A DNA stretch of 64,000 bases from Phycisphaerae bacterium (GTDB taxonomy: Bacteria; Planctomycetota; Phycisphaerae; Sedimentisphaerales; Anaerobacaceae): contig JAUVVQ010000005.1 in the NCBI GenBank assembly GCA_030604525.1, positions 15,162-79,161 of the forward strand. Direction: 5' to 3'. The position numbers and the translations under genes were made by a program. How positions within the stretch are numbered: position 1 is the stretch's first letter; each line of letters begins with the position of its first letter. The notes under the pieces are model-generated. The model was not told where the DNA came from, searched no databases, and saw only the letters and a list, made by a program, of their open reading frames with translations. Of the stretch, positions 2,186 to 26,753 are shown in pieces.

Positions 2186-3820
2186 TTACGTGGCAGTGGA
2201 ATCCTTGTAGGGCGATTCGTATGATTTTACCGTTCCATTTTTGTATATGATCGTAATGGCCTCGTTGTCATCGAAGATTATCTGCTTCCAGTCCTTGACA
2301 ACACCGTAAAGGCAGCTTCGTAGCTTTGACCGCAGATACTCAGCGGGACCGATAATTGTCGCCCAGAATTCCTCCATTTCCTGCTCGAAGTAATACAACT
2401 GCGTATCATAAGTATCACCATCCTCATTCCAGCCGCCAAGATGAAACCATATATCGGTTGAACTCAACTGATTTCTGGCTTCAAGCGTGACATACACATT
2501 CATACAGCACCAGCTTCTTTTCTCAGTAGGCTGTTCGAGTACCGCCATAAGTACATCAGACTTGAAAACCTTGCCATCACTTGTATGCACCGCTATTTGA
2601 AGTGAGTCAGTAGCAATAAGCGTTTCGCTCCAGATGCCTTGCTGGCCGAGTTCTTTGCCTACAGCTACCTCGACTTTATTTACAGTAGGCAAATTGGCCC
2701 AACTGTATCCATCATAAGCAGGCCGAATTCTTACAGGAACAAAAGGCTCTTTGAGTTTTCCGGTTGCAGCTAACAGATGTATATTAGCCTCGTCGGTCTC
2801 ACAGCCATCTTCGCAATCCTTGCCCAGCCGGTAACAACTGCTCAGAGGCAAATCATCCGGCTTCGTCACCTCTATTGGCTCTACAACGTCATCGTAGAGC
2901 AACCCTATATCAAATACAGGCTCGGCCTCCGGCAGATCAATGCCAAGTTCCCTGGCACGTTCGTATTCCTTGAAAGGCAATTTATGTGCGCCTTGTTTCT
3001 GTATAAACCGGAATGCCTCGATCTCAATCGCAGCTTTAAGTTCCTCGAAAGCTTTGTTTTCGATAAGCTGTGTTCGTGCCGGAAGCATCAGACGGATACC
3101 TGTCGGATCCCCGGTCATATCCACCAGAAATGTAAGCTCCTGGTCACTTACCGGCGAATTTGTAAAGGAGATCACCTGGCCATGGAAGTTGACCAGAACA
3201 TCGTTGGAATAGTAGCCGTGCCTGAAATGTGTATGCCATTTATTCAGGGTTTTCTTATGGCGTACTTCAACCTTGCAGCCCAGTGCAGGATAATTGGCAG
3301 CATCCTCAGAGCAAAACGATTCCTTGCTACATTGCTGCCCATCAACTGTAGCTGTCAGACCGCTGAAAACAGCATGCTTTTCAACAGTGCCGAATTCCCA
3401 CGGTTCATCCTTGAACACAAGAATTGTACCTTTTATCGATTCGACGTTCTCCACAACCGCGACCGGCTCACCTGTCCAAGCCTTTTCGGTTATGCACACT
3501 TTCCTGTCTCCGCTGCAGATAGTAACTTCCCGCGGTGCCAGGCAAAAGACACCAACTCCTGCAGGATCTTCTGACTTCTCCGTTGCATCGTCCCAGTCCG
3601 AATCGCCGAGATGCAGCAATTTTGAAAAGTCCTCAATCCCACTGCCGTTGTCGCAAACAGTAATGAAACCGTCCTTGTTGATAATGTTTACATGCGTTGC
3701 ACCCGCTCGTCTTGAATTTTGCAGGATTTCAATAATCCTACCGTCCATTGTACCAGTGAACAACCTACTGGCCTTTGTCAGCAGTCTTTCACTGACTTTC
3801 GCACAAATTGTTTCTTGCAT
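2186..3820 (-). CDS. GHKL (Bergerat-fold) ATP-binding protein, 544 aa
   Basis: N-terminal motifs IIEILQNSRRAGATHV (N-box-like), VCDNGSGI (G1) and DPAGVGVF. It is the first gene of a minus-strand operon that also includes the DUF2958 gene. Confidence 0.6.
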   Translation of the reverse strand: MQETICAKVSERLLTKASRLFTGTMDGRIIEILQNSRRAGATHVNIINKDGFITVCDNGSGIEDFSKLLHLGDSDWDDATEKSEDPAGVGVFCLAPREVTICSGDRKVCITEKAWTGEPVAVVENVESIKGTILVFKDEPWEFGTVEKHAVFSGLTATVDGQQCSKESFCSEDAANYPALGCKVEVRHKKTLNKWHTHFRHGYYSNDVLVNFHGQVISFTNSPVSDQELTFLVDMTGDPTGIRLMLPARTQLIENKAFEELKAAIEIEAFRFIQKQGAHKLPFKEYERARELGIDLPEAEPVFDIGLLYDDVVEPIEVTKPDDLPLSSCYRLGKDCEDGCETDEANIHLLAATGKLKEPFVPVRIRPAYDGYSWANLPTVNKVEVAVGKELGQQGIWSETLIATDSLQIAVHTSDGKVFKSDVLMAVLEQPTEKRSWCCMNVYVTLEARNQLSSTDIWFHLGGWNEDGDTYDTQLYYFEQEMEEFWATIIGPAEYLRSKLRSCLYGVVKDWKQIIFDDNEAITIIYKNGTVKSYESPYKDSTAT

Positions 3821-4636: not shown

Positions 4637-5557
4637 TTACGACTTACGTTTTCTAAGAAACAATCCGCCGAGCCCGACAAGTGCTAATGTTGCTGGCTCA
4701 GGAACTACATTTACAGGGATTTGTAAAGAAGTGGTTTCTGTGCCATCAGTAAGATAAAGTGTTGTCAAGTAGTTGCCAGAATCAGAGAAAACATGTTCGA
4801 GTGACAGTGTGCTTGTTTGAATTCCGCTTGTCCAAGTCGAAAGAGAAGGATATTTATCGTGAGGCACAGGTTCCTCATCAAAGGTAGCAGATCCGCTCTG
4901 GTCTGTCTGGCCATCACCGTCCCAGTCGATGTCATATGAGAAAAAAGGGTTGCCATAGTAGTCTCTGTCAACATACCTGGACCACCATGATGAGCTTTTA
5001 TCTTCAAATTCTAGGCCAAGACTGACAGTTAGTCCTGTGGTTGCTGAACTTTGCAAATACGTTCTTGGAGCATAATTTCGCCAGAGAGATACTTGCGAAA
5101 CAGCCGAAAGGGTCGCCACAATGCCTGAGCCGGTGTCAACCATCTCACTATGTCTCACTAAGTCAGCCAGATAGGCATTTCCCCCTGGTTCAGCCGGGCA
5201 ATCCCATACTTGGGGCGATTGAAAATTCATCGTTGCTGTTATGCTTTCTAATGAAGAAAGTTCGCTGCTTTGCCAGTCTATGATCATTGAACCATCTTCG
5301 AGGTATTCAATCCCGTCGGAAGCACTACACCCAACAACTGTTCCGGTCAACCCCAAAGAATCGGAAGCAATGAAACTTGAATATCGTGTACTCGGACGAA
5401 CTAAAGTGTAGCCGATAGTTGAATTAAAACTACAGTTATATTCGGTAATATCATAGGTTGCTCTGGCTGGCGAAATACCAATTCCGCTTACATCAGAAAC
5501 CATACAGAGGGTTGTTAAGAGTATAAAATTAAATGCTAATAATTCTTTTTTCATCAT
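4637..5557 (-). CDS. PEP-CTERM sorting-domain secreted protein
   Basis: N-terminal signal peptide. C-terminal VPEPATLALVGLGGLFLRKRKS (PEP motif, TM segment, basic tail). Confidence 0.8.
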   Translation of the reverse strand: MMKKELLAFNFILLTTLCMVSDVSGIGISPARATYDITEYNCSFNSTIGYTLVRPSTRYSSFIASDSLGLTGTVVGCSASDGIEYLEDGSMIIDWQSSELSSLESITATMNFQSPQVWDCPAEPGGNAYLADLVRHSEMVDTGSGIVATLSAVSQVSLWRNYAPRTYLQSSATTGLTVSLGLEFEDKSSSWWSRYVDRDYYGNPFFSYDIDWDGDGQTDQSGSATFDEEPVPHDKYPSLSTWTSGIQTSTLSLEHVFSDSGNYLTTLYLTDGTETTSLQIPVNVVPEPATLALVGLGGLFLRKRKS

Positions 5558-5571
5558 CTCACTCTATTAAA

Positions 5572-6294
5572 TTAAATTTGTCGTTTTCTAAAAATTAAAC
5601 CGCCTAAACCCAGCAAGAACAATGTTGCCGGTTCCGGGATTGTTGCTAATTCAAAATTACCTACCCGAAAGGTTGTGTCTTGGCAGGAAGGGATATCTAT
5701 TTCTATAAAGAATTTGTCAACTCCACTAGAGGGGACATCCAACATACCAGCCCAAATGATTTCTCTATCGATATAGGCAGCTATATATTCTCCTGAACTG
5801 TCTAAAAGCATAGCGACTTCGTGAGCGGTATCGCCCTTGGATACAGTATGTTGTACGCCATCAAGCATATCGTAAGTGCCTTCAGAATTTCTATATCCTA
5901 TAGAAATATAGTTGTTCCTAATATTTCCCGGTTCAGGAAAAAATCCTATGTAAGCCTCTAAGTTGCTAGAAAGCTGCATGCCGATTACATTTTTGCCCCA
6001 ACTCGTTAGGCTATAATCGTCAGTTTCCAAGGAAATATCTGCCCTTATTCCTCTTATATCTTCCTCTGGAACTGATGCATATTGGTAAAGTGATGCTCCC
6101 CATTGATACGTTGCCATAGAACGCAAATTCCATGCCCCGTCTCTGCTTGTTACCTCTACATTATATGTTGGAACACGGAAATCCCACTTGTTAAAGTTGC
6201 CACAATCATCATACATTGTCCAGATTGTTGCATTTGTTATCGGAGTCAATACTACCAGCAATAACAAAACGCATAGCGTAATCATTTTTCTCAT
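5572..6294 (-). CDS. PEP-CTERM sorting-domain secreted protein
   Basis: N-terminal signal peptide. C-terminal IPEPATLFLLGLGGLIFRKRQI. Confidence 0.8.
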   Translation of the reverse strand: MRKMITLCVLLLLVVLTPITNATIWTMYDDCGNFNKWDFRVPTYNVEVTSRDGAWNLRSMATYQWGASLYQYASVPEEDIRGIRADISLETDDYSLTSWGKNVIGMQLSSNLEAYIGFFPEPGNIRNNYISIGYRNSEGTYDMLDGVQHTVSKGDTAHEVAMLLDSSGEYIAAYIDREIIWAGMLDVPSSGVDKFFIEIDIPSCQDTTFRVGNFELATIPEPATLFLLGLGGLIFRKRQI

Positions 6295-6331
6295 TTATAC
6301 GTTCCCTTCTGATTTTAAGTTGACTATTTTG

Positions 6332-6961
6332 TTATAAATACAACCGGTCTAAGGCCTTTTTAATTTCGGGCAGCATTACATCCGCATAAACCTGGGTTGT
6401 TGTAATTTTTGCGTGTCCCAGTTGTTTCTGTACAAGGCGAAGATTCCAGTTGCTCGCTTTTAACAAAAAGCACGCGTATGTGTGCCTCAGGCAGTGAATC
6501 GAATAATGCAGAGGCAGGTCTGCTCTTTGTGCACATCGCTTAAATGCTTTCTGTATAGCTCTGGTCGTCATGTGTCCTCCGGTATTGCTGGATAACAATA
6601 ATGGCTGAGCGGCTTCTGTCGATTCGCCGATACTTTGTTTCCATGCCAGATATTCCTTACAATGCTGTTTGAATGGGCCGTTAAAAAAGACCCTTCTTTT
6701 TTTATTGCCTTTGCCGTTTTTTACCAGCAGCGACGGGAGCGTGTCATCTGTGCTGAGATCGTCGCAATTCAGTGCCACCATTTCCATTACCCGAAGGCCG
6801 GTTGCCAGGCCCAGATGGATAATAAAGTAATCCCTTACAGCGGTTTTCTTTTCCTTTGGATAGGCAGATTCCGCTCTGTTTTTGGCAACAGCCAGCAGTT
6901 TCTCCGCATCCTTCCTTGGCAGAAACTTCTTGGGATCAAGCTCCCAGGAATTTGATTTCAT
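6332..6961 (-). CDS. Tyrosine recombinase/integrase, short form (catalytic domain only)
   Basis: Catalytic residues in order: GLRVME (Arg), KGNKKR (Lys), HCLRHT (His-x-x-Arg), GHAKI (His), QVYADV (Tyr). Confidence 0.85.
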   Translation of the reverse strand: MKSNSWELDPKKFLPRKDAEKLLAVAKNRAESAYPKEKKTAVRDYFIIHLGLATGLRVMEMVALNCDDLSTDDTLPSLLVKNGKGNKKRRVFFNGPFKQHCKEYLAWKQSIGESTEAAQPLLLSSNTGGHMTTRAIQKAFKRCAQRADLPLHYSIHCLRHTYACFLLKASNWNLRLVQKQLGHAKITTTQVYADVMLPEIKKALDRLYL

Positions 6962-7277
6962 TCTTTTTCAGGCATCATGTCCTCCTTTCATATTTGGTGT
7001 GAAATATGAACTTATTTGACAAGGAAATATGGGCTTAAATACTTTTTGGATAAGGAGATACAACGACAAAGAGCGGGCTTTGTTTGGCGAAAAACTTCTT
7101 CGGGAAAAAGGCATGATTTGACAAATTTGAAACGCAAAATCGCTGAAAAAATGTTTTTATCGACGATTTTTTAGGAAAAAATTTTGAAATGACAATAAAA
7201 AAAGGTTCAGAAAACACACCTTATCTGAACCTTTGACTTTAATTGTAGCATATTTGCTTTTGGATTTCAAGCATTTC

Positions 7278-7306
7278 TTGACAATAACTGCTATCTAATT
7301 ATAATT
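7278..7306 (+). promoter_or_regulatory. Sigma70-like promoter for the HTH/methyltransferase operon
   Basis: TTGACA (7278-7283), 17-nt spacer, ATAATT (7301-7306), about 55 nt upstream of the ATG at 7361. Confidence 0.4.
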
Positions 7307-7360
7307 ACTGGAACTTCCCGTTTTAGGGTAAATATGTTTTATGGCTGGAGATAACGCTGT

Positions 7361-7558
7361 ATGTCAAAAAAACAGGACATTTTAACTATTGACGAGCTTT
7401 CCAAGTATCTGAAAATTCCTAAGTCTACTGTATACAAACTTTGTCAGGAAGGGAAGGTGCCAGGGCAAAAAGTTGGAAGACATTGGCGGTTCCACAAGGA
7501 AGTCATTGATAGTTGGATTAAAGAAGGTAGTTCTGCTTCTGGTAGCAATAAACGATAG
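7361..7558 (+). CDS. Excisionase/MerR-type helix-turn-helix protein (65 aa)
   Basis: LTIDELSKYLKIPKSTVYKLCQEGKVPGQKVGRHWRF matches the HTH_17/Xis-like pattern. The gene is divergent from the integrase. Confidence 0.8.
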   Translation: MSKKQDILTIDELSKYLKIPKSTVYKLCQEGKVPGQKVGRHWRFHKEVIDSWIKEGSSASGSNKR

Positions 7559-7606
7559 CTCTAATTTTGAGTGAAATGATATGATTATATTTGTAGTGAG
7601 ATTGAT

Positions 7607-8806
7607 ATGCCGAAGAGCTTAAAATACATCGATCTGTTTGCGGGGTGCGGCGGGCTATCGTTGGGACTATTCAATTCAAGTTGGCGAGGTATCTTTGCCA
7701 TAGAAAAAGATGCTATGGCTTTTGAAACCTTAAACCACAATCTAGTTGAACAAAAGAACCATTTTGATTGGCCAGATTGGTTACCAAAGACATGTCATGA
7801 TATAGATGAATTGTTGGAAGACTATCGTGAAAATCTTGAAGCCCTAAGCGGAGAGATAGATTTAGTTGTAGGTGGCCCACCTTGCCAGGGCTTTTCTATG
7901 GCTGGAAAGAGAAAAGAAAGTGATGCACGTAACAAACTAATTCACTCATATATTCAATTTGTTGATTATGTCAGACCTCGTGTAATATTATTTGAAAATG
8001 TAAAAGGCTTTACTCTAGGTTTTACCAAGAATGGCAAGCAGGGACAGCCATATTCAGATGTTGTCCTAAGTAGCTTAAAGGAGTTAGGGTATAGTGATGT
8101 TAGGGGTGAGTTAATAAATTTCGCTAAATTTGGAGTGCCCCAAAGAAGGGAGCGTTTTATTATAATAGGTACTCTTGATGGCAATGCAGACCACTTTTTT
8201 AGTAACTTATTGGCAAACCGGCAAAAGTTTTTGTCGGCAAAAAAATTAAAATCAAATATAGGTGTGAGATTAGCGATTTCGGATTTGAAAGAATCAAGTG
8301 GCTTAGTTGATTGTCCCGACACCCCAGGATTCAAATCAGGGCGATATATTTCTCCTAGAAATAATTATCAAAAATTACTTCGTAAATATGTCAATAAGAC
8401 GGCCATTCCCGACAGCCACCGTTTTGTAAATCATCGTCCAAATACTATCGACATTTATAAAAACCTTTTGAGCCGGGCAGAACGAAATATATCTGTAAAT
8501 GATGCTCTGAGGGAGGAACTTGGCATTAGTAAACGAAATGTAACCGTATTAGACAGCACAAAACCATCTCCAACATTGATGAGCATACCCGATGATTATG
8601 TCCATTACTGTGAACCAAGGGTGTTGACGGTTAGGGAATATGCCCGGATACAGTCTTTTCCTGATTGGTATAGATTTAAAGGCAATTATACAACCGGTGG
8701 AAAACGTAGAGCAAATGAGGTACCCCGTTATACCCAGGTTGGTAATGCAATTCCCCCGTTGTTTGCTGAACATGCCGGTAATATTCTAAAGGAGTTGTTA
8801 GATTAG
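7607..8806 (+). CDS. DNA (cytosine-5)-methyltransferase
   Basis: Motif I DLFAGCGGLSLG, motif IV GGPPCQGFS, motif VI LFENVKGF, motif VIII QRRERFII, motif X GNAIPP. Confidence 0.95.
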   Translation: MPKSLKYIDLFAGCGGLSLGLFNSSWRGIFAIEKDAMAFETLNHNLVEQKNHFDWPDWLPKTCHDIDELLEDYRENLEALSGEIDLVVGGPPCQGFSMAGKRKESDARNKLIHSYIQFVDYVRPRVILFENVKGFTLGFTKNGKQGQPYSDVVLSSLKELGYSDVRGELINFAKFGVPQRRERFIIIGTLDGNADHFFSNLLANRQKFLSAKKLKSNIGVRLAISDLKESSGLVDCPDTPGFKSGRYISPRNNYQKLLRKYVNKTAIPDSHRFVNHRPNTIDIYKNLLSRAERNISVNDALREELGISKRNVTVLDSTKPSPTLMSIPDDYVHYCEPRVLTVREYARIQSFPDWYRFKGNYTTGGKRRANEVPRYTQVGNAIPPLFAEHAGNILKELLD

Positions 8807-11098
8807 ATGGCAAAGCTTGATCCAAATAAATTTCGAGTTAGCTCAGCACTAAAAAATATCATTGGCAAAGAGTTAATTACCGATGATTTTATTGCAGTAT
8901 TTGAATTAGTCAAAAATTCTTTTGATGCACATGCAGCACAAGTTGATATCTTTTTTGAAGGTATCCGTGGCGATAATACAAGGCTTATCATATGGGATGA
9001 TGGCAAAGGAATGGATAGGGAGGATATAATAAAAAAATGGCTTTTTGTTGCCTATTCTGCAAAAAAAGAAGGGACGGAAGACTACAGGGATAAGATTAAA
9101 TCCAAACTTATTCATGCAGGGTCTAAGGGAATTGGGCGTTTTTCCTGTGATAGGCTTGGTAGTAACCTTACTTTTTATACGAAGAGAAAGGGAGACAATG
9201 CAAAAATCAATAAGCTTGTAGTCGATTGGGCTGACTTTGAACAAGACTCGCAAGAAGAATTTATTAATATCAAGATTAAACATAGTTATGTCCAAGAAGC
9301 ACCTTACGAAAACTTTAAACATGGTACGATATTGGAGATAACCGGATTACTGGAAAGATGGAATAGAGATAAACTTCTTACGCTAAGACATTCTCTTGAA
9401 AAATTAATTAATCCCAACCAGGAAAATGATCCGCATGGCTTCTCGATATATCTTAATGTTGAAGAGGAAGAAGAAAAAGACAGGGAAGAAAAAGCAAAGG
9501 GTGAGAAAAGAGATATTGTTAATGGTAGGATTGAAAATAAAATATTTGAAAATTTAGAAATTAAAACAACAAAAATCAACACAGTTATTTCTAAAGACGG
9601 CAAAACCATTACTACCCTCCTAGAAGATAGAGGGACCTTGATATATAAAGTTGTTGAAGAAAATTCTTACAAAGAACTACTTAAAAATATTAATATTTAT
9701 CTTTTTGTGCTTAATCGTTCCGCCAAACTTAGTTTTTCAAAAAGGATGGGGATTCGTGCAGTTCAGTATGGTTCTATTTTCCTTTACAAGAATGGCTTTA
9801 GAATCTATCCATTCGGAGAACCAGGGCAAGATACACTTAAAATAGATCATCGTAAACAACAGGGGACAGCACGCTTTTTCGGCACACGTGATTTAATAGG
9901 ACGAATAGAAATTAATGGGAATAACCCTTTGTTTCAGGAGACAAGTAGCAGGGACGGCGGTCTTATCCGCAACTCAGCCTATGAAGTCTTGGAGAAATTT
10001 TTTACTGAGTATGTGCTAAAGAGACTTGAAAAATTCGCTATTGGTGTAATCAAATGGGGTAATGATGGCGATTTGCTAGACCACGAGCAACTTAGCCCCG
10101 CAGAGATGAAGAAAAAAGTTTCCGATATCGTGTACCATCTAACGACATCTGAAAATATTATTGATTTCAACTACAATCCAAAACTTATTGATGTACTGCA
10201 GGATAGGACCGAGAGAAGCCTTAAGAAGATACTCGGCAACCTACAGCACATCGCGGAACAATCAGATAACCAGCTTGTTGCCAAAGAGATTAGGCGAGCT
10301 CAAAGACAATATAACTCTCTCTTAAAAGCTAAAGAGGAAGCTGAAAAAGGAGAACAAGCTGCAAAGGAAGAGACCAGAAAAGGAAAGGATGTTGTAAAAC
10401 AAAAGGAAACTCAAAACTTATTTTTGAAGGCAGCTATACCCCATGACGTGAAGTTCCTGGATAATCTCTGTCACTCTATTGGAATGTACGCAGATGGTAT
10501 GCATGATGACATCAGGGATATATTGTCAGAGGCAAAGAAAAAACAGATGAGTAGGAATGTCATCGTAGGTGCAATTAAAAATATAAGTTACCATTCGAAT
10601 ACAATCGCTTCGTTGGCCAAATTTGTATCAAGGGCTAAATTCAGGTTTGATTGTGCCAAGATGAGAAAGGACTTAATCCTCTTCATGAGAGAGCATTTGT
10701 TGAACGTCTCTTCGGAGATTTACAAAAAGGAGATACGGATCAAGTTTACCAGCGAGATTAAAGGAAAATTCGTTTGTGAATTCAGGCCAATAGAGATAAC
10801 GATACTTCTCGATAACTTAATAAGTAACTCAATAAAAAAGAAGGCACGGAATTTTATCATTGATGTCATGTCTCTGACGCCCGGAATGTTGAAGGTTAGT
10901 TTTTCGGATGATGGTCAGGGTGTGCCCAGTTCGGTTCGTGATTGCCTTTTCGAGGAAGGTATAACCACAACAAGTGGTTCCGGTTTAGGGTTATTTCATG
11001 TGAAAGAGATAATCACCAGCATGAAGGGCAGCATACAGTTCAATCCTGATTACAAAGGTGGAGCTCAATTCGTAGCTACATTTAAGAGGAAACCATGA
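8807..11098 (+). CDS. Fusion protein: N-terminal MORC/HATPase_c_3-like GHKL ATPase plus C-terminal histidine kinase (DHp-like H-box and CA domain)
   Basis: N-terminal motifs ELVKNSFDAHA, IWDDGKGMD, GSKGIGRFS. A Lys/Glu coiled-coil follows, then IPHDVKFLDNL (His546). C-terminal motifs LLDNLISNSIKK (N box), FSDDGQGV (G1), SGSGLGLFHVKEI (G2). The start codon directly abuts the methyltransferase stop. Confidence 0.7.
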   Translation: MAKLDPNKFRVSSALKNIIGKELITDDFIAVFELVKNSFDAHAAQVDIFFEGIRGDNTRLIIWDDGKGMDREDIIKKWLFVAYSAKKEGTEDYRDKIKSKLIHAGSKGIGRFSCDRLGSNLTFYTKRKGDNAKINKLVVDWADFEQDSQEEFINIKIKHSYVQEAPYENFKHGTILEITGLLERWNRDKLLTLRHSLEKLINPNQENDPHGFSIYLNVEEEEEKDREEKAKGEKRDIVNGRIENKIFENLEIKTTKINTVISKDGKTITTLLEDRGTLIYKVVEENSYKELLKNINIYLFVLNRSAKLSFSKRMGIRAVQYGSIFLYKNGFRIYPFGEPGQDTLKIDHRKQQGTARFFGTRDLIGRIEINGNNPLFQETSSRDGGLIRNSAYEVLEKFFTEYVLKRLEKFAIGVIKWGNDGDLLDHEQLSPAEMKKKVSDIVYHLTTSENIIDFNYNPKLIDVLQDRTERSLKKILGNLQHIAEQSDNQLVAKEIRRAQRQYNSLLKAKEEAEKGEQAAKEETRKGKDVVKQKETQNLFLKAAIPHDVKFLDNLCHSIGMYADGMHDDIRDILSEAKKKQMSRNVIVGAIKNISYHSNTIASLAKFVSRAKFRFDCAKMRKDLILFMREHLLNVSSEIYKKEIRIKFTSEIKGKFVCEFRPIEITILLDNLISNSIKKKARNFIIDVMSLTPGMLKVSFSDDGQGVPSSVRDCLFEEGITTTSGSGLGLFHVKEIITSMKGSIQFNPDYKGGAQFVATFKRKP

Positions 11099-11991
11099 GT
11101 CTTAGTTATAGAATTCTCTGGATAGACGATAACCCTACAACCATCAGGAGTAAGGTAAATCAAATCAGAACTTTCTTAGAAAAACAAGGTTTTAGGCCAG
11201 TGATAGATGTAATCGAAAGCGGGAATAATATAGAAAGCCACCTGTTAGACCCGCTTTTGGATTTAATTGTCACTGATTATAGAATACATGATGATTTGAA
11301 TGGAAAAGAGGTGGCTGAAGGAATCCGGGAATCAGATGTGATGGTTGATATTATCCTGTATTCTCAAGTCGCGGGTACGGATTTATACAAAGAGGTAGGT
11401 ACTTTAGATGGTGTTTACATTTCAAACAGGCAAGGATTGGAAGACAAGATTAAGGAAGTTATTGAAATCACCATAAGAAGAACACAAAGAGTGAGCAGTA
11501 TGCGGGGGATTGTAATTTCGGAAGCAATTGATATTGAGAATCAAATTGAAGATATCATCTTGTCTTATTACGACACCAGGGAAAAAGAACTGGCTAAGGT
11601 ACTGTTAAGCGGCGATGGTTGCAATGATCTTGGCCCTAAAATACGGTTTCTCAATTCTACGCTGAAGGATATTATTGCATCTATAAAAAGTAGTGATCAA
11701 GCAACAGAGAAAAAGATGCAACAAAAGATAGAACTGCTACTTAGCACAGCCAAGAAACTTGAAAACGAAGTCTGCAAACCCAGAGATATGCTTGCTCACG
11801 TTGAGCATACGATCGACAACAACACAATATTTTTAAAAAGTCTAAAATCTGGGTATGAAGATATCAAGATAGATACGGGTTGTTGTCAAAAAATGAGGCA
11901 ATCGTTTATGAAACACGCATCAAACCTTGAACAAATCAAAAGTTTTCTCTCCAAGTGGCATGAATATAAGAAAAAAGTACAAAAGAATTAA
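11095..11991 (+). CDS. Receiver (REC) domain protein with a helical C-terminal HEPN-like domain (Rx4H)
   Basis: ILWIDDNP (D11/D12), LIVTD (D61) and ILYS (S90) fit a receiver domain. The C-terminal domain carries KPRDMLAH (R230-x4-H235). An ATGA overlap couples it to the upstream kinase gene. Confidence 0.6.
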   Translation: MSLSYRILWIDDNPTTIRSKVNQIRTFLEKQGFRPVIDVIESGNNIESHLLDPLLDLIVTDYRIHDDLNGKEVAEGIRESDVMVDIILYSQVAGTDLYKEVGTLDGVYISNRQGLEDKIKEVIEITIRRTQRVSSMRGIVISEAIDIENQIEDIILSYYDTREKELAKVLLSGDGCNDLGPKIRFLNSTLKDIIASIKSSDQATEKKMQQKIELLLSTAKKLENEVCKPRDMLAHVEHTIDNNTIFLKSLKSGYEDIKIDTGCCQKMRQSFMKHASNLEQIKSFLSKWHEYKKKVQKN

Positions 11992-12664
11992 TAAACTAAA
12001 AATAAAATGGTTTCAAACTCAGTTAGCCCATTGGTTCGAACTCAATAATCGCAAATTTCCCTGGCGCGAAGGAAATTGCTCAAAATACCAGTTAATAATA
12101 GCTGAGGTTTTGCTTCAAAGAACTAAAGCCGAAACAATCGCAACCTTCTTCCCCTTTTTCATTAAACAATACCCTTCTTGGAAATCATTGTCTTCTGTGA
12201 ATAAAACAAAGTTAAAAAAAGACTTGAAACCAATCGGACTTTGGAAAAGAAGGTCTGATACTTTAAAGAGATTATCAACCGCGATGGCAAAACGTGGAGG
12301 GAGATTTCCAAGAACCAGGGGAGAAATTGAAGAATTACCGGGAGTTGGACAATACATTGCAAATGCAATTCTGATGTTCTGTCAAGATGAACCACAACCG
12401 TTACTCGATATGAATATGGCGAGAGTATTGGAAAGATTTTTCGGACAGCGTCAATTGGCTGATATACGTTATGATCCATATTTGCAAGAATTATCCCGAA
12501 GAGTTCTTCCCAAGAATCATGCGAAGGAATTTAACTGGGCAATCCTTGATTTTGCCTCCTTGATTTGTAAGGCCAGAAAACCTCTATGTTTGAAATGTCC
12601 CCTTAAAATCAGGTGCCAGTATTTCGACCATGATAAAGGAGTTGTGCTTGTCAAGCGGTCGTAG
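11960..12664 (+). CDS. HhH-GPD DNA glycosylase of the EndoIII/MutY family (Mig-like, [4Fe-4S] loop)
   Basis: FPWRE...VLLQRTKAE, HhH motif LPGVGQYIANAI, Asp context LLDMNMARVLERFF, and the cluster loop C-x6-C-x2-C-x5-C (CKARKPLCLKCPLKIRC). The start is uncertain: the ORF track gives 11927, and the second Met is at 11960. Confidence 0.85.
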   Translation: MNIRKKYKRINKLKIKWFQTQLAHWFELNNRKFPWREGNCSKYQLIIAEVLLQRTKAETIATFFPFFIKQYPSWKSLSSVNKTKLKKDLKPIGLWKRRSDTLKRLSTAMAKRGGRFPRTRGEIEELPGVGQYIANAILMFCQDEPQPLLDMNMARVLERFFGQRQLADIRYDPYLQELSRRVLPKNHAKEFNWAILDFASLICKARKPLCLKCPLKIRCQYFDHDKGVVLVKRS

Positions 12665-12960
12665 GGCCATCGCAAAACGGCTGAAATTCCAATGATTGCT
12701 TTTTGAGAAATGAATAAACCTGCAGGTGTCAGTGATCAAAAGTTGTCGTGCATATCAAACTCAATCAAAACACAACAGTGATGCCTTAAAATTTGATATA
12801 TTGACGGATATTCTTTGTGTTAAGAAGTATGAAACTTAAAAATGAATCCGCAAAACTACGCAGCTTTTTTAAGCCGATAACCCATTATCCGTATTTGACG
12901 GAAAAAGTGTTGTTTAATATTACATAGAACTGTTTTGGGGTCACGTTCGGGTCTGGCTGG

Positions 12961-13085
12961 CTCGCGGATTAACTGCTCATTGATAGAGGGCGGTGCATTA
13001 AAGTCAAAAGTATCAAGTGTTTTTATTACAGGAAAGCGAGCGGGTTTTACTCGCCTTTCAGCAGTTCGTCAAAAGTACAGTTTAT
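12961..13085 (-). pseudogene. IS21-family IstB helper ATPase, N-terminal fragment
   Basis: The minus-strand translation AERRVKPARFPVIKTLDTFDFNAPPSINEQLIRE matches the conserved IstB segment upstream of Walker A. It is preceded by a frameshifted TFDELLKGE. No Walker A or later sequence follows. Confidence 0.55.
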
Positions 13086-13150
13086 GGTTAGTTTTTGATT
13101 AGCTGGGCAATAATTGGCTTTTGTTTACATATCCTGTCCCTGAAATCTGC

Positions 13151-13179
13151 TTGCTAATATCCGATTTCGCTGGTATCAT
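13151..13179 (+). promoter_or_regulatory. Possible sigma70-like promoter for the type I R-M operon
   Basis: TTGCTA, 17-nt spacer, TATCAT, about 70 nt upstream of the hsdM ATG. Confidence 0.3.
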
Positions 13180-13251
13180 CTGGAAAAATTGTCTCTGTAA
13201 TTCATTGGAGAGATAGCAATATGGCTGGGAATCCAAGGAAAGGAATTCGTA

Positions 13252-15294
13252 ATGAACAACTTTGGTGATAAGGTCAGTTTTATATGGAGCGTAGCTGACT
13301 TGCTTCGCGGGCCGTATAAGCCAAATCAGTACAGGGACGTAATGTTGCCTCTCACCGTGCTGCGGCGTCTGGACTGTGTACTGGAACCGACTAAAGGCAA
13401 GGTGCTGGCCAAACTAAACGCCCTAAAAGGCGGCTCTGTCAAGAATATCGAGCCGATTCTTAACCGTGCTGCGGGGCAGCAATTTCACAATACCAGTTTG
13501 CTTGATTTTAACAAACTTAAAGGCGATCCCAATAATATCGCAGCTAACCTGGTTAGTTATACTAAAGGCTTTTCTTCAAAGGCACGCGAGGTAATAGAGT
13601 ATTTCGATTTTGAGCCCCATATCGAGAAGCTGGACAATGCCAATCGCCTGTACTTGGTGGTTAAAAAATTTGCAGAAATCGACCTGCATCCTGATGTTGT
13701 TTCCAATACAGAGATGGGTTACATCTTTGAAGAGCTTATTCGCAAGTTTAACGAAGCAGCCAACGAGGAAGCCGGTGACCATTTCACCCCTCGTGAGGTC
13801 ATCCGTCTTATGGTCAACCTGCTTTTTTCTCAGGATAATGCAATCCTGACCACAAAGGGTATCGTAAGAACTCTCTACGACCCTGCGTGTGGTACAGGTG
13901 GTATGTTGTCGGTTTCAGATGAATATCTTCGTGAGCTAAATCCAGATGCTCGACTCGAAGTTTACGGCCAGGAATATAATCGATTTGCATATGCAACCTG
14001 TGGCTCGGATATGATAATTAAAGGCCAAAGCCTTGAAAATATTAAATTCGGCGACACATTCGGCGATGGTAAAACCTCTGACGGTCTGCCACGTCATAAG
14101 TTTGATTATATGCTGGCAAATCCGCCATTTGGTGTTGAATGGAAGCCAGAGGCAGATGAGGTCAGAAAAGAATACGACCAGCAGGGTTTTACCGGCAGAT
14201 TTGGGGCTGGAGTTCCCCGGATTAACGATGGGTCGTTCCTGTTCCTACAGCATATGATATCCAAAATAAAGCCTGTAAAAGATGGCGGCAGCCGTATTGG
14301 AATAGTATTCAATGGCTCACCTTTGTTTACCGGCGATGCGGGTTCTGGCGAATCAAATATTCGCCAATGGATTATAGAACATGATTGGCTTGAAGCCATA
14401 ATCGCTATGCCCGACCAGTTGTTTTACAATACCGGCATATTTACATATATCTGGATAGTTACCAACCGCAAGGAGAAGAAACGTAGAGGTAAAATTCAGC
14501 TTATCAATGCTGTTGAGTTTTATCAGAAAATGCGAAAGAGCCTTGGCAACAAGCGTAATGAGATTGGCGACGGACAAAATGGACGACCGAACCACATTGC
14601 AGAAATTACTCGTATTTATGGCGAATTTAAGGAATCAAAATACAGCAAGATATTCAACAACGATGATTTTGGCTTTCGCAAAATAACTGTTGAAAGGCCG
14701 CTCAAGTTAAGCTTTCAGGCAACTGCTGAGCGCATTAAATCTCTAATGGAGACAAAAGCTTTTGTTAATCTGGCTAAGTCCAAAAGGAAAAAAGGTTCTA
14801 AGATAGCCTTGGCTGAAATAGAAGCAGGACAAAAGTTGCAGGCCGACATTCTTGAAGCTTTGAAAACGCTTGATGCCGACAAGATTTACAAAAACCGTGA
14901 TGCTTTTGATAAAGACCTGGCTGTTGCGATGAAAGCTGCAGATATCAAGCTGCCTGCCCCAGTCAAAAAGGCGATTCTAAACACTCTTTGCGAACGGGAC
15001 GAGACAGCTGATGTTTGCACAGACAAAAAAGGTAACCCTGAGCCGGATACCGAGCTTAGAGACTATGAAAATGTGCCGTTAAAGGAGGATATTTACGAAT
15101 ACTTCAAACGTGAAGTTCTGCAGCACGTACCCGATGCATGGATTGACGAGAGTAAGACCAAGGTTGGCTACGAGATACCTCTAAACCGGCACTTCTATGA
15201 ATATACCCCGCCAAGACCACTTGCAGATATTGAGTCTGATATTAAGGCCCTCGAAGGAGACATCGTAAAAATGCTGGGGGAGGTGACAGGATGA
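13252..15294 (+). CDS. hsdM: Type I restriction-modification methyltransferase subunit
   Basis: N-terminal HsdM-type region, motif I DPACGTGGML, motif IV LANPPFGVEW. Operon context with hsdS and hsdR. Confidence 0.95.
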   Translation: MNNFGDKVSFIWSVADLLRGPYKPNQYRDVMLPLTVLRRLDCVLEPTKGKVLAKLNALKGGSVKNIEPILNRAAGQQFHNTSLLDFNKLKGDPNNIAANLVSYTKGFSSKAREVIEYFDFEPHIEKLDNANRLYLVVKKFAEIDLHPDVVSNTEMGYIFEELIRKFNEAANEEAGDHFTPREVIRLMVNLLFSQDNAILTTKGIVRTLYDPACGTGGMLSVSDEYLRELNPDARLEVYGQEYNRFAYATCGSDMIIKGQSLENIKFGDTFGDGKTSDGLPRHKFDYMLANPPFGVEWKPEADEVRKEYDQQGFTGRFGAGVPRINDGSFLFLQHMISKIKPVKDGGSRIGIVFNGSPLFTGDAGSGESNIRQWIIEHDWLEAIIAMPDQLFYNTGIFTYIWIVTNRKEKKRRGKIQLINAVEFYQKMRKSLGNKRNEIGDGQNGRPNHIAEITRIYGEFKESKYSKIFNNDDFGFRKITVERPLKLSFQATAERIKSLMETKAFVNLAKSKRKKGSKIALAEIEAGQKLQADILEALKTLDADKIYKNRDAFDKDLAVAMKAADIKLPAPVKKAILNTLCERDETADVCTDKKGNPEPDTELRDYENVPLKEDIYEYFKREVLQHVPDAWIDESKTKVGYEIPLNRHFYEYTPPRPLADIESDIKALEGDIVKMLGEVTG

Positions 15295-16658
15295 TAAGCC
15301 CGCTGGATGCAATTACAAAATTTTATTTAGAATCGCATCGATTCAATGGATATCCATTTGTAAATTTAAAGCAAGAACTCGGGATGAATTTTCACGACGC
15401 TTTTAATTTTGTAAGAGAGAATGTTAATAATGGAACTCTTACAGCTGTTTTTGGTGATATGCACCCAAATCCGCATATCAAAGCTTTTTCTGATGAGCCA
15501 CAGAAAAATATTATAACTAAACTGAATCAGCATAAAGATAAAATGAATGAGAGTTTTAATGAATATTCAGCTAATGATCCTGATAACTCTGCTTACAGCA
15601 AAATAGGAAATTGTGCTATCAAATTTGCGACGGGCATAACAGTCTGCCTTTATCCCACGAGGTTACATCTTGAGAGTATTGTCAATCCAGATGGCTACAA
15701 AGATCGTCCTTATACCTATGAAATGGCACTGGGGGCAGGCCAGTTAGAGTTTCGCTACTTTGAATTAACTGTACTTGAATTTTATAGAAACGATCCCAGA
15801 TATTACTATTGGTGTGATGACATTAATGGACGTATTTCTATACACGATGAACACTATCACGGCGAATCAATGGCGGAGAAAGACAAAGTTTTATTAGAGA
15901 CATTTGGTTTTGCTTATGATAATGATACACATCGTGCAGTCACAACTTTAGTCTACTATATTTCCAAGTTATCACCAGAGCATCAGCAGGTATGGAAAAA
16001 TCAGGAATTAGACTCCTCTAAATACAGACCGCATCCGGATTATTATCGTAACAATATCCTTGGAGACTGGGGCGAAAAGATTCCTATTTGCACAGCATTT
16101 TTGATGGAATTGAAAATCATAAATCAAATGTGTGTTGCGATGGGTAAACCAGCTTTGTTTCGTAAAGACTTTGATGGTGACGATAAACCACGTAATTTTT
16201 CTTTTCTCGTTAGACCTACTCATAAAGAGTATTATGATTTTGTTGGTCTTCTGGACAAAATGATGTCTGATAATGTTAATAAAAAGTTTTTTGAAAATGA
16301 CATATCCTGTGAAGACGAGGAAACTCGCCCTGATGGCAAAATTGTAGTTAAACAAAAAGGGACAATCCAATTATTGAAGGAATGGATAAATAAATACTAT
16401 CATCCTCAAGGTCAGAAGCCGATGGATGATATTTTCAAGGCGTTTCGTAAAGTAAGAAAGGAAAGGCAGCGTCCTGCCCATGCTATTGATGACGATAGAT
16501 TCGATCAAAAATATTTCGCAGATCAGCGTCAGATTTTAAAAGAAGCTTATGGTGCAGTCAGGACCATACGTTTGGTTTTCGCCAATCATCCTGCTGTAAA
16601 GGCTGCAAAAATTGATATCCCTCAGAATCTTTTTGAAGGCAAAATATGGACTTGTTGA
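15291..16658 (+). CDS. Hypothetical protein (455 aa) embedded between hsdM and hsdS
   Basis: ATGA overlap with the hsdM stop. No domain recognised. A basic segment near the C-terminus, FRKVRKERQRPAHAIDDDRF, contains an R-x4-H spacing. Confidence 0.6.
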   Translation: MISPLDAITKFYLESHRFNGYPFVNLKQELGMNFHDAFNFVRENVNNGTLTAVFGDMHPNPHIKAFSDEPQKNIITKLNQHKDKMNESFNEYSANDPDNSAYSKIGNCAIKFATGITVCLYPTRLHLESIVNPDGYKDRPYTYEMALGAGQLEFRYFELTVLEFYRNDPRYYYWCDDINGRISIHDEHYHGESMAEKDKVLLETFGFAYDNDTHRAVTTLVYYISKLSPEHQQVWKNQELDSSKYRPHPDYYRNNILGDWGEKIPICTAFLMELKIINQMCVAMGKPALFRKDFDGDDKPRNFSFLVRPTHKEYYDFVGLLDKMMSDNVNKKFFENDISCEDEETRPDGKIVVKQKGTIQLLKEWINKYYHPQGQKPMDDIFKAFRKVRKERQRPAHAIDDDRFDQKYFADQRQILKEAYGAVRTIRLVFANHPAVKAAKIDIPQNLFEGKIWTC

Positions 16659-16675: not shown

Positions 16676-17008
16676 ATGGCAATATTAGACACGGCAAAAA
16701 CAATAGCTGAACTTGCTAAAAAGGGTATGACTGTAGAGCTTCAGGAAAAGATTGTGGAGCTTAGAGAAGAAGTGATAGCTCTTAAAGAAGAAAACGTTCA
16801 ATTGAGAGAGGAAAACCTACAATTAAAGCAACAACTTAATGGCTATGCTAAAGGCAACCTTTGCCCGAAATGCAAGAAAGATACATGGCAGCTTGAAGAA
16901 AGTAAACCGCATCCTATCATGCAAGATATGGGTATTATTTTGAGGACATATAAATGTTCGCAATGCGGTTTCTCTGAAGAATATGATTATACGCCGAAAG
17001 GTCATTAA
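16676..17008 (+). CDS. Coiled-coil plus zinc-ribbon small protein (110 aa)
   Basis: Leucine-zipper-like VELREEVIALKEENVQLREENLQLKQQL, followed by CPKC...CSQC (a four-Cys ribbon). Confidence 0.55.
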   Translation: MAILDTAKTIAELAKKGMTVELQEKIVELREEVIALKEENVQLREENLQLKQQLNGYAKGNLCPKCKKDTWQLEESKPHPIMQDMGIILRTYKCSQCGFSEEYDYTPKGH

Positions 17009-19781: not shown

Positions 19782-20720
19782 ATGATTGGTAAAATCAAAA
19801 GAGTTGGTTTACGGGAAGTTTGGAAACATGAAGCCTATGACTTTACCCAGTGGCTGGAAGATAATATTGATGTACTCAATGATGTAATAGATATCAATTT
19901 ATCTAACGCTGAAAGAGAAAGAGCCGCGGGTACTTTCAGTGCGGACCTGGTAGCGGAAGACGAGAAAGGCAATCCAGTTGTCATAGAAAATCAACTCGAA
20001 AAGAGCAACCACGACCATTTGGGTAAACTTATCACGTATTTGACTGCTATAGGGGCTAAGGCGGGTATTTGGATAGTGGCTGATCCACGACCTGAGCATG
20101 TTAGTGCAATCTCCTGGCTTAATGAGTCAAGCTCCGCTTCGTTTTATCTATTGAAGGTAGAGGCAATTAAGATCGGTGAATCCAAACCGGCACCGCTGTT
20201 GACTTTGATTGTGGGCCCGAGTGAGGAAAGCCGTGAAGTGGGTAAGACAAAGAAAAACCTTGCCGAGCGTCACATATTACGAGAAAAGTGGTGGTCAGTC
20301 TTGCTGGATAATGCAAAAGCTAAAACAAAACTACATGCCAAGCGTTCTACAACAAAATATAACTACATTAACGCGAGTTCCGGTAAACGAGGCCTTGGTT
20401 ATATGTACAGCGTTAACCAAAACAACACCACAGTAGAACTATATGTTGACAGAGGTGGGGATTCAAAAGAGGAAAATGAACGCATCTTCGACAACCTGAA
20501 ACAGAATAAAGCTGAGATTGAATCAGCTTTTGGCGAAAAGCTTGAGTGGGAAAAACTGGAAACTAAACGAGCATGCAGAATTATCAAACGTTTTTCTCTT
20601 GGTGGATATAGGTCCGATGAAGAACAATGGCCGGGTATTCATGATAAGATGATAGATGCAATGATAAGATTAGAAAAGGCCCTCGGCCCATATATTAAAA
20701 AGATGAAAATTGGAGCGTAA
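19782..20720 (+). CDS. PD-(D/E)XK-like N-terminal domain plus DUF4268-like C-terminal domain protein
   Basis: FSADLVAEDEKGNPVVIENQLEKSNHDHLGKLITYL is the signature seen in DUF4268-family proteins that are often linked to type I R-M loci. Confidence 0.65.
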   Translation: MIGKIKRVGLREVWKHEAYDFTQWLEDNIDVLNDVIDINLSNAERERAAGTFSADLVAEDEKGNPVVIENQLEKSNHDHLGKLITYLTAIGAKAGIWIVADPRPEHVSAISWLNESSSASFYLLKVEAIKIGESKPAPLLTLIVGPSEESREVGKTKKNLAERHILREKWWSVLLDNAKAKTKLHAKRSTTKYNYINASSGKRGLGYMYSVNQNNTTVELYVDRGGDSKEENERIFDNLKQNKAEIESAFGEKLEWEKLETKRACRIIKRFSLGGYRSDEEQWPGIHDKMIDAMIRLEKALGPYIKKMKIGA

Positions 20721-26108: not shown

Positions 26109-26753
26109 ATGAGCAATGATAAAGAAATATTTGAAAAAATATATGAACAAGGAGCAGTCTGGACAGAATCCGAGCCACCTAAAGAATTGGTAAATTTAAT
26201 TCAGAGTGGAAAAGTTAAACCATGCAAGGTTCTTGATGTTGGATGTGGCGAAGGATTCTATGCTATTTATTTGGCTTCAAAAGGTTTTGAGGTAACAGGA
26301 ATAGACATATCAGAAAATGCTATAAAACTAGCAAAAGGAAATGCGGCGACACAAGGCGTAAAAATCAAATTTATGCCTCTTGATGTTGCAAATTTAGATA
26401 AAATAAATGACAAATTTGATTTTGTATTTGAATGGGCAATTTTGCATCATATAATCCCCGAGCAAAGACAAAAATATGTAGAGAACATTAAGGGGATTTT
26501 GAATAAAGATGGGAAGTATCTATCTGTTTGTTTTAATGATCAAAACCCTGACTTTGGACAGAAAGGCAAAAAATTAAGAATAATTCCTGAAGGTGCAAAA
26601 ATGCCTGCTGGCACAAGATTATATTATTCATCCCTTGAAGAAATGAAAATCTTATTTGAAACACATTTTCGTACAATTGATTCCAAACTGATTAAGATGA
26701 CAGCTGGTGGAAAAGAACATATTGGCAACTATTTTTTTATAGAAAAATACTAG
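26109..26753 (+). CDS. Class I SAM-dependent methyltransferase (small-molecule type)
   Basis: Motif I VLDVGCGEGFYAIYLASKG, then EVTGIDISENAI. Size and layout fit a Methyltransf_11/25-like enzyme. Confidence 0.8.
   Translation: MSNDKEIFEKIYEQGAVWTESEPPKELVNLIQSGKVKPCKVLDVGCGEGFYAIYLASKGFEVTGIDISENAIKLAKGNAATQGVKIKFMPLDVANLDKINDKFDFVFEWAILHHIIPEQRQKYVENIKGILNKDGKYLSVCFNDQNPDFGQKGKKLRIIPEGAKMPAGTRLYYSSLEEMKILFETHFRTIDSKLIKMTAGGKEHIGNYFFIEKY

Follow-up and report, generated by a model that had tools for sequence, protein, structure and literature searches.

The window analysed here is a 64,000-nucleotide stretch of contig JAUVVQ010000005.1 from a Phycisphaerae bacterium, and all coordinates below are window positions. 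At 7361-12664 it carries an operon of five genes encoding a small helix-turn-helix (HTH) protein, a C5 DNA methyltransferase, a GHKL-kinase fusion, a protein with a response-regulator receiver (REC) domain and an HhH-GPD glycosylase. This five-gene unit is a horizontally mobile, self-contained cassette linked to DNA methylation. We consider it fairly probable that the cassette as a whole combines a cytosine methylase with a Mig-like base-excision accessory and with a phosphorelay that would act as its effector arm. The readings that compete with individual parts of this explanation are discussed together with the evidence that bears on them.

A mobile cassette linked to cytosine methylation

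Five open reading frames, all encoded on the + strand, were found at the coordinates given in a preliminary description of this DNA. They are listed here together with the promoter and the extent of the conserved cassette.

7361-7558, + strand: HTH protein, 65 aa
7607-8806, + strand: 5-methylcytosine (m5C) methyltransferase, 399 aa
8807-11098, + strand: GHKL-kinase fusion, 763 aa
11095-11991, + strand: REC protein, 298 aa
11960 (ATG) to 12664, + strand: HhH-GPD glycosylase, 234 aa; in-frame TTG upstream at 11927
7278..7305, + strand: sigma-70 consensus promoter TTGACA-16-TATAAT, 12/12 matches, right where the conserved cassette begins
7275..12625, + strand: conserved mobile cassette, from the promoter through nearly the whole glycosylase gene

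The genes are tightly packed. The HTH gene is separated from the methyltransferase gene by 48 bp, the TAG stop of the latter directly abuts the ATG at 8807, the GHKL and REC genes share four bases (ATGA) and the REC gene runs 32 bases into the glycosylase gene. No terminator-like site was found on the + strand inside the operon, and Rfam, tRNA and repeat scans of 6000-14000 returned nothing belonging to it. The reading frame coordinates, the junctions, the consensus promoter and the absence of an internal terminator bear out the preliminary view of one compact transcription unit.

Comparison with other contigs defined the limits of this unit. Positions 7275-12625 share 92.8% nucleotide identity and an identical gene order with positions 5316-10666 of a Desulfobacteraceae metagenome-assembled genome (MAG) contig, locus L001, and the flanks on both sides are unrelated. 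Since the homology ends at both boundaries, the unit is a mobile five-gene cassette that begins at its own promoter. The same gene order was found on unrelated contigs at 62-94% protein identity, with L003 and L004 encoding the same four genes at 62% identity, so that the grouping exceeds chance. The homology to L001 ends 40 bases short of the stop codon of the glycosylase gene (12625-12664). The C-terminal tails of the two glycosylases therefore differ (234 vs 224 aa) and the insertion boundary lies within the 3' end of the gene. The glycosylase gene also shares 87% nucleotide identity (12056-12567) with positions 4947-5458 of locus L006, a Pirellulales MAG, and the rest of the operon shares about 67%. 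This mosaicism suggests, at the level of sequence, that the glycosylase gene has been exchanged between operons as a separate module.

The first gene encodes a member of the HTH_17/excisionase family (PF12728, E 6.6e-17; the excisionase domain model TIGR01764 also matches), which is probably the regulator (controller) of the operon. The gene lies within the cassette conserved in L001 and is missing from L003. Membership of the operon in MADS, which is defined by a mad1-mad8 set with mad6-8 being mandatory, was rejected. Only the HTH protein resembles MAD1, scoring 66.7 bits against an NCBIfam cut-off of 80 and E 2.9e-12 with the PADLOC mad1 model, and the other operon proteins gave no PADLOC mad match.

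The second gene product is, judged by its sequence, a C5 DNA methyltransferase (PF00145, 182 bits; TIGR00675, 152 bits and above cut-off; PADLOC MTase_II, E 2e-81). Motifs I, IV, VI, VIII and X read FAGCGG, PPCQ, ENV, QRRER and GNAIPP, in agreement with the full set of canonical motifs reported before. As a Dcm-type enzyme, it would mark the DNA of the host with 5-methylcytosine (5mC).

The terminal glycosylase and its genomic partners

Deamination of 5mC gives rise to T:G mismatches. In E. coli, dcm is paired with the Vsr endonuclease, and on the archaeal plasmid pFV1 an m5C restriction-modification (R-M) system is paired with Mig.MthI, a T/G-mismatch glycosylase of the EndoIII family. The preliminary description proposed that the terminal gene of the cassette encodes a Mig-like antimutator replacing Vsr. 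This proposal is well supported by the ranking of solved structures, the catalytic residues and Ala57 of the base pocket, mutY and nth scores below cut-off, linkage to methyltransferases and the occurrence of Vsr in the same slot of sister modules. We predict a monofunctional, Mig-like T/U:G mismatch glycosylase, which would remove T (and U) from the T:G mismatches left by 5mC deamination and would thus be the base-excision counterpart of Vsr.

The protein matches PF00730 (HhH-GPD) and PF00633 (HhH). Its motifs LPGVGQYIANAI (aa 126-137) and LLDMNMARVL (aa 148-157) and its iron-sulfur loop CKARKPLCLKCPLKIRC (aa 203-219), a C-x6-C-x2-C-x5-C arrangement of C203, C210, C213 and C219, are present exactly as previously quoted. 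The first two motifs align with LPGVGKYTCAAV and MVDANFVRVI of Mig, and the loop aligns with the Mig cysteines. Among 20 homologs C203, C213 and C219 are invariant and C210 is nearly so. When the single sequence was searched against the PDB, Mig.MthI (1KEA) was the best solved relative with 132 bits over its full length (aa 12-223 on Mig 7-217), compared with 116 bits for the best MutY and 57 bits for EndoIII. Using a 20-member family profile widened the gap, with 171 bits for Mig.MthI, 145 for MutY and 75 for EndoIII. In the alignment Phe33, Arg54, Ala57, Tyr132 and Asp150 correspond to F27, R47, A50, Y126 and D144 of Mig, respectively. The comparison with Mig, MutY and Nth suggested earlier therefore places Mig.MthI closest, with catalytic residues and one of two pocket residues of the Mig type over those of the MutY type.

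A50/L187 of Mig and V45/Q182 of E. coli MutY are published determinants of specificity (PMC2714593). Ala57 matches A50, and the L187 position is occupied by Trp193, which is invariant in the family and is neither the Leu of Mig nor the Gln of MutY. According to work on Mig Y126K (PMC9945173), a Tyr at the position of the EndoIII lysine (Lys120) goes with the absence of lyase activity. Tyr132 is invariant in the glycosylase family, and a monofunctional enzyme is predicted from it. The protein has no MutY-type C-terminal NUDIX domain. It consists of 234 aa in total and its alignment with MutY ends where the MutY catalytic domain ends, confirming what had been expected from its length. The top NCBIfam match is mutY (TIGR01084) with 156.5 bits against a cut-off of 286.5, followed by nth (TIGR01083) with 77.9 against 211.7; both scores being under the cut-off, the glycosylase is an equivalog of neither.

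The wider family comprises 2913 database matches, mostly of 215-240 aa. A scan of one genome per species yielded 236 glycosylase loci, the best 80 of which were examined for context. These are distributed over Planctomycetota, Bacteroidota, Chloroflexota, Acidobacteriota, Desulfobacterota, Gemmatimonadota, Nitrospirota and Proteobacteria, and include a Methanolinea archaeon. According to a profile built from m5C methylases, 60 of the 80 loci have an m5C methyltransferase gene no more than 10 kb away; the remaining 20 are mostly short contigs or contigs cut near the gene. Five unrelated system architectures accompany the glycosylase homologs: GHKL-kinase and REC protein arranged as in the window (14 loci), GHKL-kinase with two unknown proteins of ~230 aa (10 loci, referred to as type B), DndH-like and/or SspF-like genes (20 loci), a MORC-like ATPase with an Mrr-helicase and in some cases also an MzaA-like protein (about a dozen loci) and an MvaI/BcnI-type endonuclease, usually with a 740-aa methylase (12 loci). 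The cytosine methylase is the only common denominator, which points to the behaviour of a Vsr-like accessory and not of a system-specific effector.

Two of these arrangements have features of their own. In type B loci (L033, L042, L056, L057, L071, L077, L080, L082, L084 and one more), the methylase is followed by a longer GHKL-kinase (~770-885 aa where complete) and two conserved proteins of ~220-245 aa replace the REC protein. The latter gave no Pfam or PADLOC match, and the idea that they represent a split REC protein was rejected as they show no similarity to its profiles. The Dnd-type operons (~20, among them L019, L021, L023, L025, L029, L035, L053, L054, L072, L073 and L081) encode an m5C methylase, an SspF-like protein of ~680 aa, a protein of ~520 aa and a DndH-like protein of ~1750-1870 aa, with the glycosylase gene last. 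DndFGH/SspFGH-type restriction genes normally accompany phosphorothioation, so that their pairing with cytosine methylation is unusual.

Sister modules were also sampled through the kinase, that is, without bias with respect to the glycosylase. The slot after the response regulator (RR) gene, which encodes the REC protein, holds an HhH-GPD gene in L086, a vsr gene in L091 (47% kinase identity to the window; Vsr immediately after the RR gene) and nothing in L087, L088 and L092. Vsr and the glycosylase thus share a slot, and in terms of operon slots the phrase "glycosylase in place of Vsr" can be taken literally. The Vsr domain (PF03852) had no match in any protein of the window operon. Taken from homology, specificity residues and gene context, the glycosylase would be an optional companion that m5C methylases in general carry along.

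Annotations in public resources bear on two alternative readings. The source annotation of many homologs is "A/G-specific adenine glycosylase", and this label, together with mutY being the top NCBIfam match, would speak for a housekeeping MutY or Nth ortholog that adjoins the operon by chance. We assign this reading a negligible probability, as it is contradicted by the sub-cut-off scores for both families and the missing NUDIX domain, by pocket residues (Ala and Trp replace Val45 and Gln182 of MutY; PMC2714593), by the mobility of the gene, which overlaps the REC gene and moves with the cassette, and by its linkage to an m5C methylase in 60/80 loci. The PADLOC model PDLC03398, "Type II nicking endonuclease" (REase_II; REBASE-derived), matches the glycosylase with E 4e-38, so that members of this family are already present in curated R-M resources. 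PHROGs gave no informative match. The nicking label presumably originates from the filing of Vsr-type V genes in REBASE. Taken literally, it would make the glycosylase the restriction activity itself, a glycosylase or nicking enzyme attacking unmethylated sites, and a few homologs do reside in defence-type neighbourhoods without an m5C methylase. This is nevertheless very improbable. The enzyme has Mig-type mismatch residues and a Tyr in place of the lyase Lys, sister modules can do without it or have Vsr in its stead, and it accompanies systems that have nucleases of their own (MvaI/BcnI, Mrr-helicase, DndH-like).

Two findings count against the Mig-like accessory as part of the overall explanation. 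The invariant Trp at the position of Mig Leu187 means that substrate preference could differ from that of Mig, and homologs without a detectable m5C methylase exist in L005/L014 (a Caldilineaceae chromosome), L012, L013 and L016.

In these methylase-less loci, which do not fit a simple rule of a companion of Dcm, the glycosylase gene follows a HerA-like ATPase gene or lies beside genes for an HNH protein or a Swt1-HEPN-SNF2 helicase. L005 has an N6/N4 methylase gene 1.5 kb downstream.

The kinase/REC pair as a candidate effector arm

The 763-aa protein encoded at 8807-11098 is of the paraMORC type, with a GHKL ATPase (aa 29-174), a transducer-like middle and a CA domain (aa 663-761). Pfam recognizes PF13589 (HATPase_c_3) at its N-terminus and PF02518 (HATPase_c) at its C-terminus. 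Across 38 homologs His556, N670/N674, D701/G703/G705 and G724/G726/G728 (N, G1 and G2 boxes) are invariant, as is an extended central block containing an RKQQG loop. In the AlphaFold2 (AF2) model, which has a predicted local distance difference test (pLDDT) score of 72, His556 is located within a long helix (547-577) corresponding to DHp. In Foldseek searches HK853, WalK and CpxA were matched by the C-terminal ~230 aa (E ~1e-12), and GRP94 by the N-terminal part. Sequence and model thus indicate that the histidine-kinase core, a DHp His plus an N/G1/G2 CA domain, is complete. A search of plasmids with the kinase gave partial matches only, at <=32% identity. One Stenotrophomonas plasmid carries a gene pair annotated as Dcm and "GHKL domain-containing protein".

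The REC protein consists of a receiver domain (aa 1-130) and a C-terminal output domain (aa 133-297). The receiver matches PF00072 weakly (27 bits) and contains the acidic pair D11-D12 and the acceptor Asp61. In family alignments Asp61 is invariant, D12 nearly so, and Ser90 after beta4 is nearly invariant. The AF2 model (pLDDT 82.8) shows a (beta-alpha)5 receiver followed by a helical domain with one beta-hairpin. The response-regulator receiver is accordingly complete as far as sequence and model can tell. Searching 1.84 billion representatives with a profile of the C-terminal domain yielded 633 proteins. Nearly all of the best 150 are 270-350 aa long and have the domain at the same position, so the architecture of receiver plus output domain (REC-X) is fixed. 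One relative comes from the BFVD: A0A8S5LY51 from Myoviridae sp. ctrnx29, a 298-aa "response regulator", aligns with the REC-X model over its full length (E 3.9e-5). REC-X relatives may hence be carried by phages or prophages.

The output domain contains invariant R137-G138, E143, R230-N/D-x-L-A-H235 and R268. The window protein reads R230-D-M-L-A-H235 (Rx4-6H), and RNxxAH is the signature of HEPN domains. For family analysis the relatives were clustered at 50% identity into a set of 136 representatives, among which R134, G135, R238 and H243 never vary and N239, A242 and R277 hardly ever do. Pfam detects Response_reg (PF00072) in 121 of the 136; the only other recurrent matches are two receiver-type families, a likely coiled-coil artefact and HEPN families below threshold (HEPN_Apea in 4, HEPN_Swt1 in 3, Abi_2 in 2, HEPN_RES_NTD1 in 1). 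With hhalign, RNxLAH was placed on the RNrwAH of a Swt1-like HEPN domain from L013 at E 0.045, with a probability of only 1.2%. A profile search of the PDB with the RR alignment gave no HEPN match, PHROGs gave no informative match for the RR and no DNA-binding family was detectable for the output domain. Based on sequence and model, the output domain is a candidate HEPN-type RNase, the chances of which we judge to be about even or slightly better.

None of the operon proteins matched PD-(D/E)XK, HNH, GIY-YIG, PLD or related nuclease families in Pfam, NCBIfam, PADLOC or PHROGs, and Foldseek returned no nuclease for the kinase and REC models. The family-library and structure searches thereby uphold the preliminary observation that the operon has no recognisable restriction nuclease. 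The triad of methylase, GHKL-kinase and REC protein also recurs alone, without any nuclease gene. It is from this absence of a DNA nuclease that the kinase/REC pair is taken as the effector ("restriction") arm. The preliminary description left the choice between an orphan methyltransferase and a kinase/REC-HEPN effector. The conserved nuclease-free triad favours the effector; its RNase identity is suggested by the motif, the helical model and the sub-threshold Pfam matches.

We envision the two middle genes to encode a cytoplasmic phosphorelay. The MORC/MutL-like GHKL/transducer module would probably be a DNA-bound sensor that controls autophosphorylation of the kinase core. The phosphoryl group would then be passed to Asp61 of the response regulator, and phosphorylation would release the RNase activity of the output domain. 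Sensing of invading or unmethylated DNA by the kinase would in this way activate an RNase and lead to arrest of the cell or the phage, so that the kinase/REC pair would be what the methylase protects against, a restriction arm acting on RNA. By analogy, such a phosphorelay-driven RNase is plausible. MORC/paraMORC proteins have been proposed to be DNA-associated sensors in R-M loci (PMC2292703), and fusions of paraMORC and HEPN domains in R-M neighbourhoods represent a precedent (PMC3710099). The full chain, in which the triad confers R-M-like immunity with a phosphorelay replacing the DNA nuclease, signals from unmethylated DNA through His556 to a REC-gated HEPN RNase and regards the repair gene as optional, is put forward tentatively and is more doubtful than the broader explanation.

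Several observations weigh against a phosphorelay effector of this kind. Not a single HEPN Pfam model reaches threshold among the 136 relatives. Searched with Foldseek against the PDB and BFVD, the whole REC-protein model retrieved receiver domains only, so that the HEPN fold of the output domain is a candidate. HEPN domains carry RNxxAH at the start of a helix, whereas the AF2 model places it at a helix end. PADLOC has no model for the 763-aa kinase or the REC protein, and neither protein matches PF19191 (HEF_HK) or PF19192 (Response_reg_2), the families of the closest published module, even at E = 10. Some sister modules adjoin an HNH_2 nuclease gene (PMC8011034). In L090, which ends at a contig edge, this gene (3013-3783) lies immediately upstream of the methylase-kinase-RR triad. 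The pair could accordingly regulate a separate nuclease, and some versions may keep a classical one. No experimental work on the triad was found in the literature searched; one figure legend from 2026 lists HATPase and REC among unvalidated predicted defence domains.

The strongest rival follows from these points. The GHKL-kinase and REC protein could form a regulatory two-component system that tunes expression or activity of the methylase or controls an unlinked restriction enzyme, with the methylase being functionally an orphan or epigenetic. This has been put forward as speculation in the discussion of the only paper on the architecture (PMC8011034), it would agree with the classical nucleases such as HNH_2 next to some sister modules, and by Foldseek and Pfam the output domain is only a putative enzyme. 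Against it, the output domain lacks a detectable DNA-binding family, and the residues that never vary in it are the R...RNxxAH set of a catalytic type. The triad also enters unrelated contexts as an intact unit, with no one nuclease as its regular partner, and an HTH regulator is already encoded upstream. We regard the regulatory reading as rather unlikely.

A second possibility is a DNA nuclease concealed in the poorly annotated middle of the 763-aa protein, which would then be an ATP-dependent restriction enzyme similar to BbrUII/HgiDII, with the phosphorelay as an add-on. The best NCBIfam match of its N-terminal GHKL domain is indeed the BbrUII/HgiDII restriction-enzyme family, at 67 bits; phrog_6203 is the other best-scoring family, the middle region holds many invariant charged residues and parts of the AF2 model are of low confidence. 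This match, however, falls far under the cut-off of 550 and spans profile positions 25-213 of 659, that is, the ATPase domain only. No nuclease family or fold was returned for the 763-aa protein by Pfam, NCBIfam, PADLOC, PHROGs or Foldseek, its C-terminal third is a complete kinase core, and we take the RKQQG loop to resemble the ATP-contacting lysine loop of GHKL transducer domains. A hidden nuclease is therefore improbable.

A third reading, which we hold to be slightly less probable still, removes any role in defence. In E. coli, MutL stimulates Vsr, and a MutL-like GHKL protein together with the glycosylase (Vsr in sisters) could constitute a machine for the repair of 5mC damage. Iyer et al. 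2008 stress the MutL-Vsr parallel and describe MORC/paraMORC neighbourhoods with Dcm and Vsr (PMC2292703), and a vsr or glycosylase gene stands immediately after the kinase/REC pair. Yet the triad often occurs with neither of them, the glycosylase is often found beside methylases lacking a GHKL protein, and a kinase core with a HEPN-like output would be unexpected in a repair helper.

Genomic setting, related systems and significance

The DNA around the cassette is low in GC and has the gene for a short tyrosine recombinase on one side and a Type I R-M system on the other. The ~22 kb at 6332-28464 resemble a defence or genomic island. GC content across most of 7-27 kb is 0.31-0.46, mostly <0.43. 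The other features of this region are listed below.

6332-6961, - strand: tyrosine recombinase, short (209 aa)
13252-15294: hsdM, Type I R-M
15291-16658: 455-aa protein without family assignment, interrupting the Type I R-M operon
16676-17008: 110-aa protein without family assignment, interrupting the Type I R-M operon
17026-18960: hsdS, Type I R-M
19782-20720: DUF4268 protein, just before hsdR
20724-23714: hsdR, Type I R-M
24675-26039: KaiC-like ATPase
26109-26753: SAM methyltransferase
26945-28006: rve-family IS transposase
28393-28464, - strand: tRNA-Thr

The interrupting genes may be further defence genes nested within this Type I R-M operon. Upstream of the recombinase, an ordinary chromosomal flank is marked by two adjoining genes for secreted proteins (4637-6294, - strand) with PEP-CTERM sorting signals at their ends (…PEPATLALVGLGGLFLRKRKS and …PEPATLFLLGLGGLIFRKRQI).

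Among known systems, Mig.MthI (1KEA), encoded on pFV1 of Methanothermobacter, is the closest relative of the glycosylase. Both have the HhH-GPD fold, the four-Cys cluster, the catalytic Asp, Tyr at the lyase position, no NUDIX domain, Ala at A50 and Arg at R47, and both adjoin an m5C methyltransferase. The window enzyme differs in being bacterial and mesophilic, in its moderate similarity (132 bits), in the invariant Trp at Leu187, in having a kinase/REC pair as its partner where Mig.MthI has a classical Type II endonuclease, and in belonging to a large family spread over many phyla. With Dcm-Vsr it has in common the logic of T:G mismatches arising from 5mC deamination and the gene slot, but it is a base-excision glycosylase of unrelated fold and not a nicking endonuclease. 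We view it as a Mig.MthI-like V-gene analog whose family is wider than the literature searched suggests.

An architecture of C5 methylase, HK-like and RR-like genes was described computationally in 2021, including an enrichment of HNH_2 nearby (Bellieny-Rabelo et al., PMC8011034). In this module, HEF_HK/Response_reg_2, Vsr directly downstream of the RR-like gene is the commonest arrangement. Shared with the window are the order of C5 methylase, HATPase_c_3 plus DHp-His plus HATPase_c and RR-like protein, the soluble nature of both proteins, location in R-M-rich islands, a frequent downstream gene for T:G repair and an RR without known output domain. In contrast to Response_reg_2, the window REC domain matches canonical PF00072, and PF19192 is touched weakly by only 2 of the 136 RR relatives. 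His556 precedes a Ser in the window protein; the family consensus has Ile at this position, and HEF_HK is described with Glu/Asp. Neither a HEPN-like output nor an HhH-GPD partner is discussed in PMC8011034. With both Pfam models failing, membership in these families was rejected. The published module is linked to the triad by architecture alone and is kept as the closest one in this respect. Novelty had been overestimated in the preliminary description, given this module and the REBASE-derived PADLOC model that matches the glycosylase.

Other systems share parts of the proposed mechanism. The paraMORC-HEPN (Ymh) fusions, PrrC and RloC (Anantharaman et al. 2013, PMC3710099; PMC2292703) combine a GHKL/S5 ATPase with a HEPN RNase in an R-M neighbourhood, and GHKL-HEPN combinations, PrrC and RloC have been proposed to be second-line, RNA-targeting effectors (PMC3710099). 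In the window the ATPase and the putative HEPN domain are found on separate proteins that would be joined by a His-Asp phosphorelay. BbrUII/HgiDII restriction endonucleases share the GHKL similarity and the position right after an m5C methylase; unlike them, the window protein loses this similarity after the ATPase domain and continues as a kinase core. In Detocs, an infection-sensing kinase phosphorylates a receiver fused to an effector enzyme. The window pair differs from Detocs in sensor and effector and in the presence of a methyltransferase, and neither protein gave a PADLOC match.

For a specialist, the repair reading of the glycosylase, although supported by sequence comparison, would be unsurprising; the nuclease-free effector is the interesting idea. 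The former indicates that the Mig type of answer to 5mC deamination, known from a single archaeal plasmid, occurs widely among bacteria, where a glycosylase interchangeable with Vsr is found with at least five kinds of m5C-bearing defence system. This aids the annotation of proteins now labelled "A/G-specific adenine glycosylase" and our view of the mutational cost of cytosine methylation. The kinase/REC pair emerges as a common, mobile and nuclease-free partner of cytosine methylases, with a predicted His-Asp phosphorelay and a HEPN-like output. If the pair is an effector, it would represent a new coupling of epigenetic self-marking to immunity in which RNA cleavage or abortive infection replaces the cutting of DNA, and the Mig-like glycosylase or Vsr would serve as an optional extra to offset the mutations that 5mC brings about.

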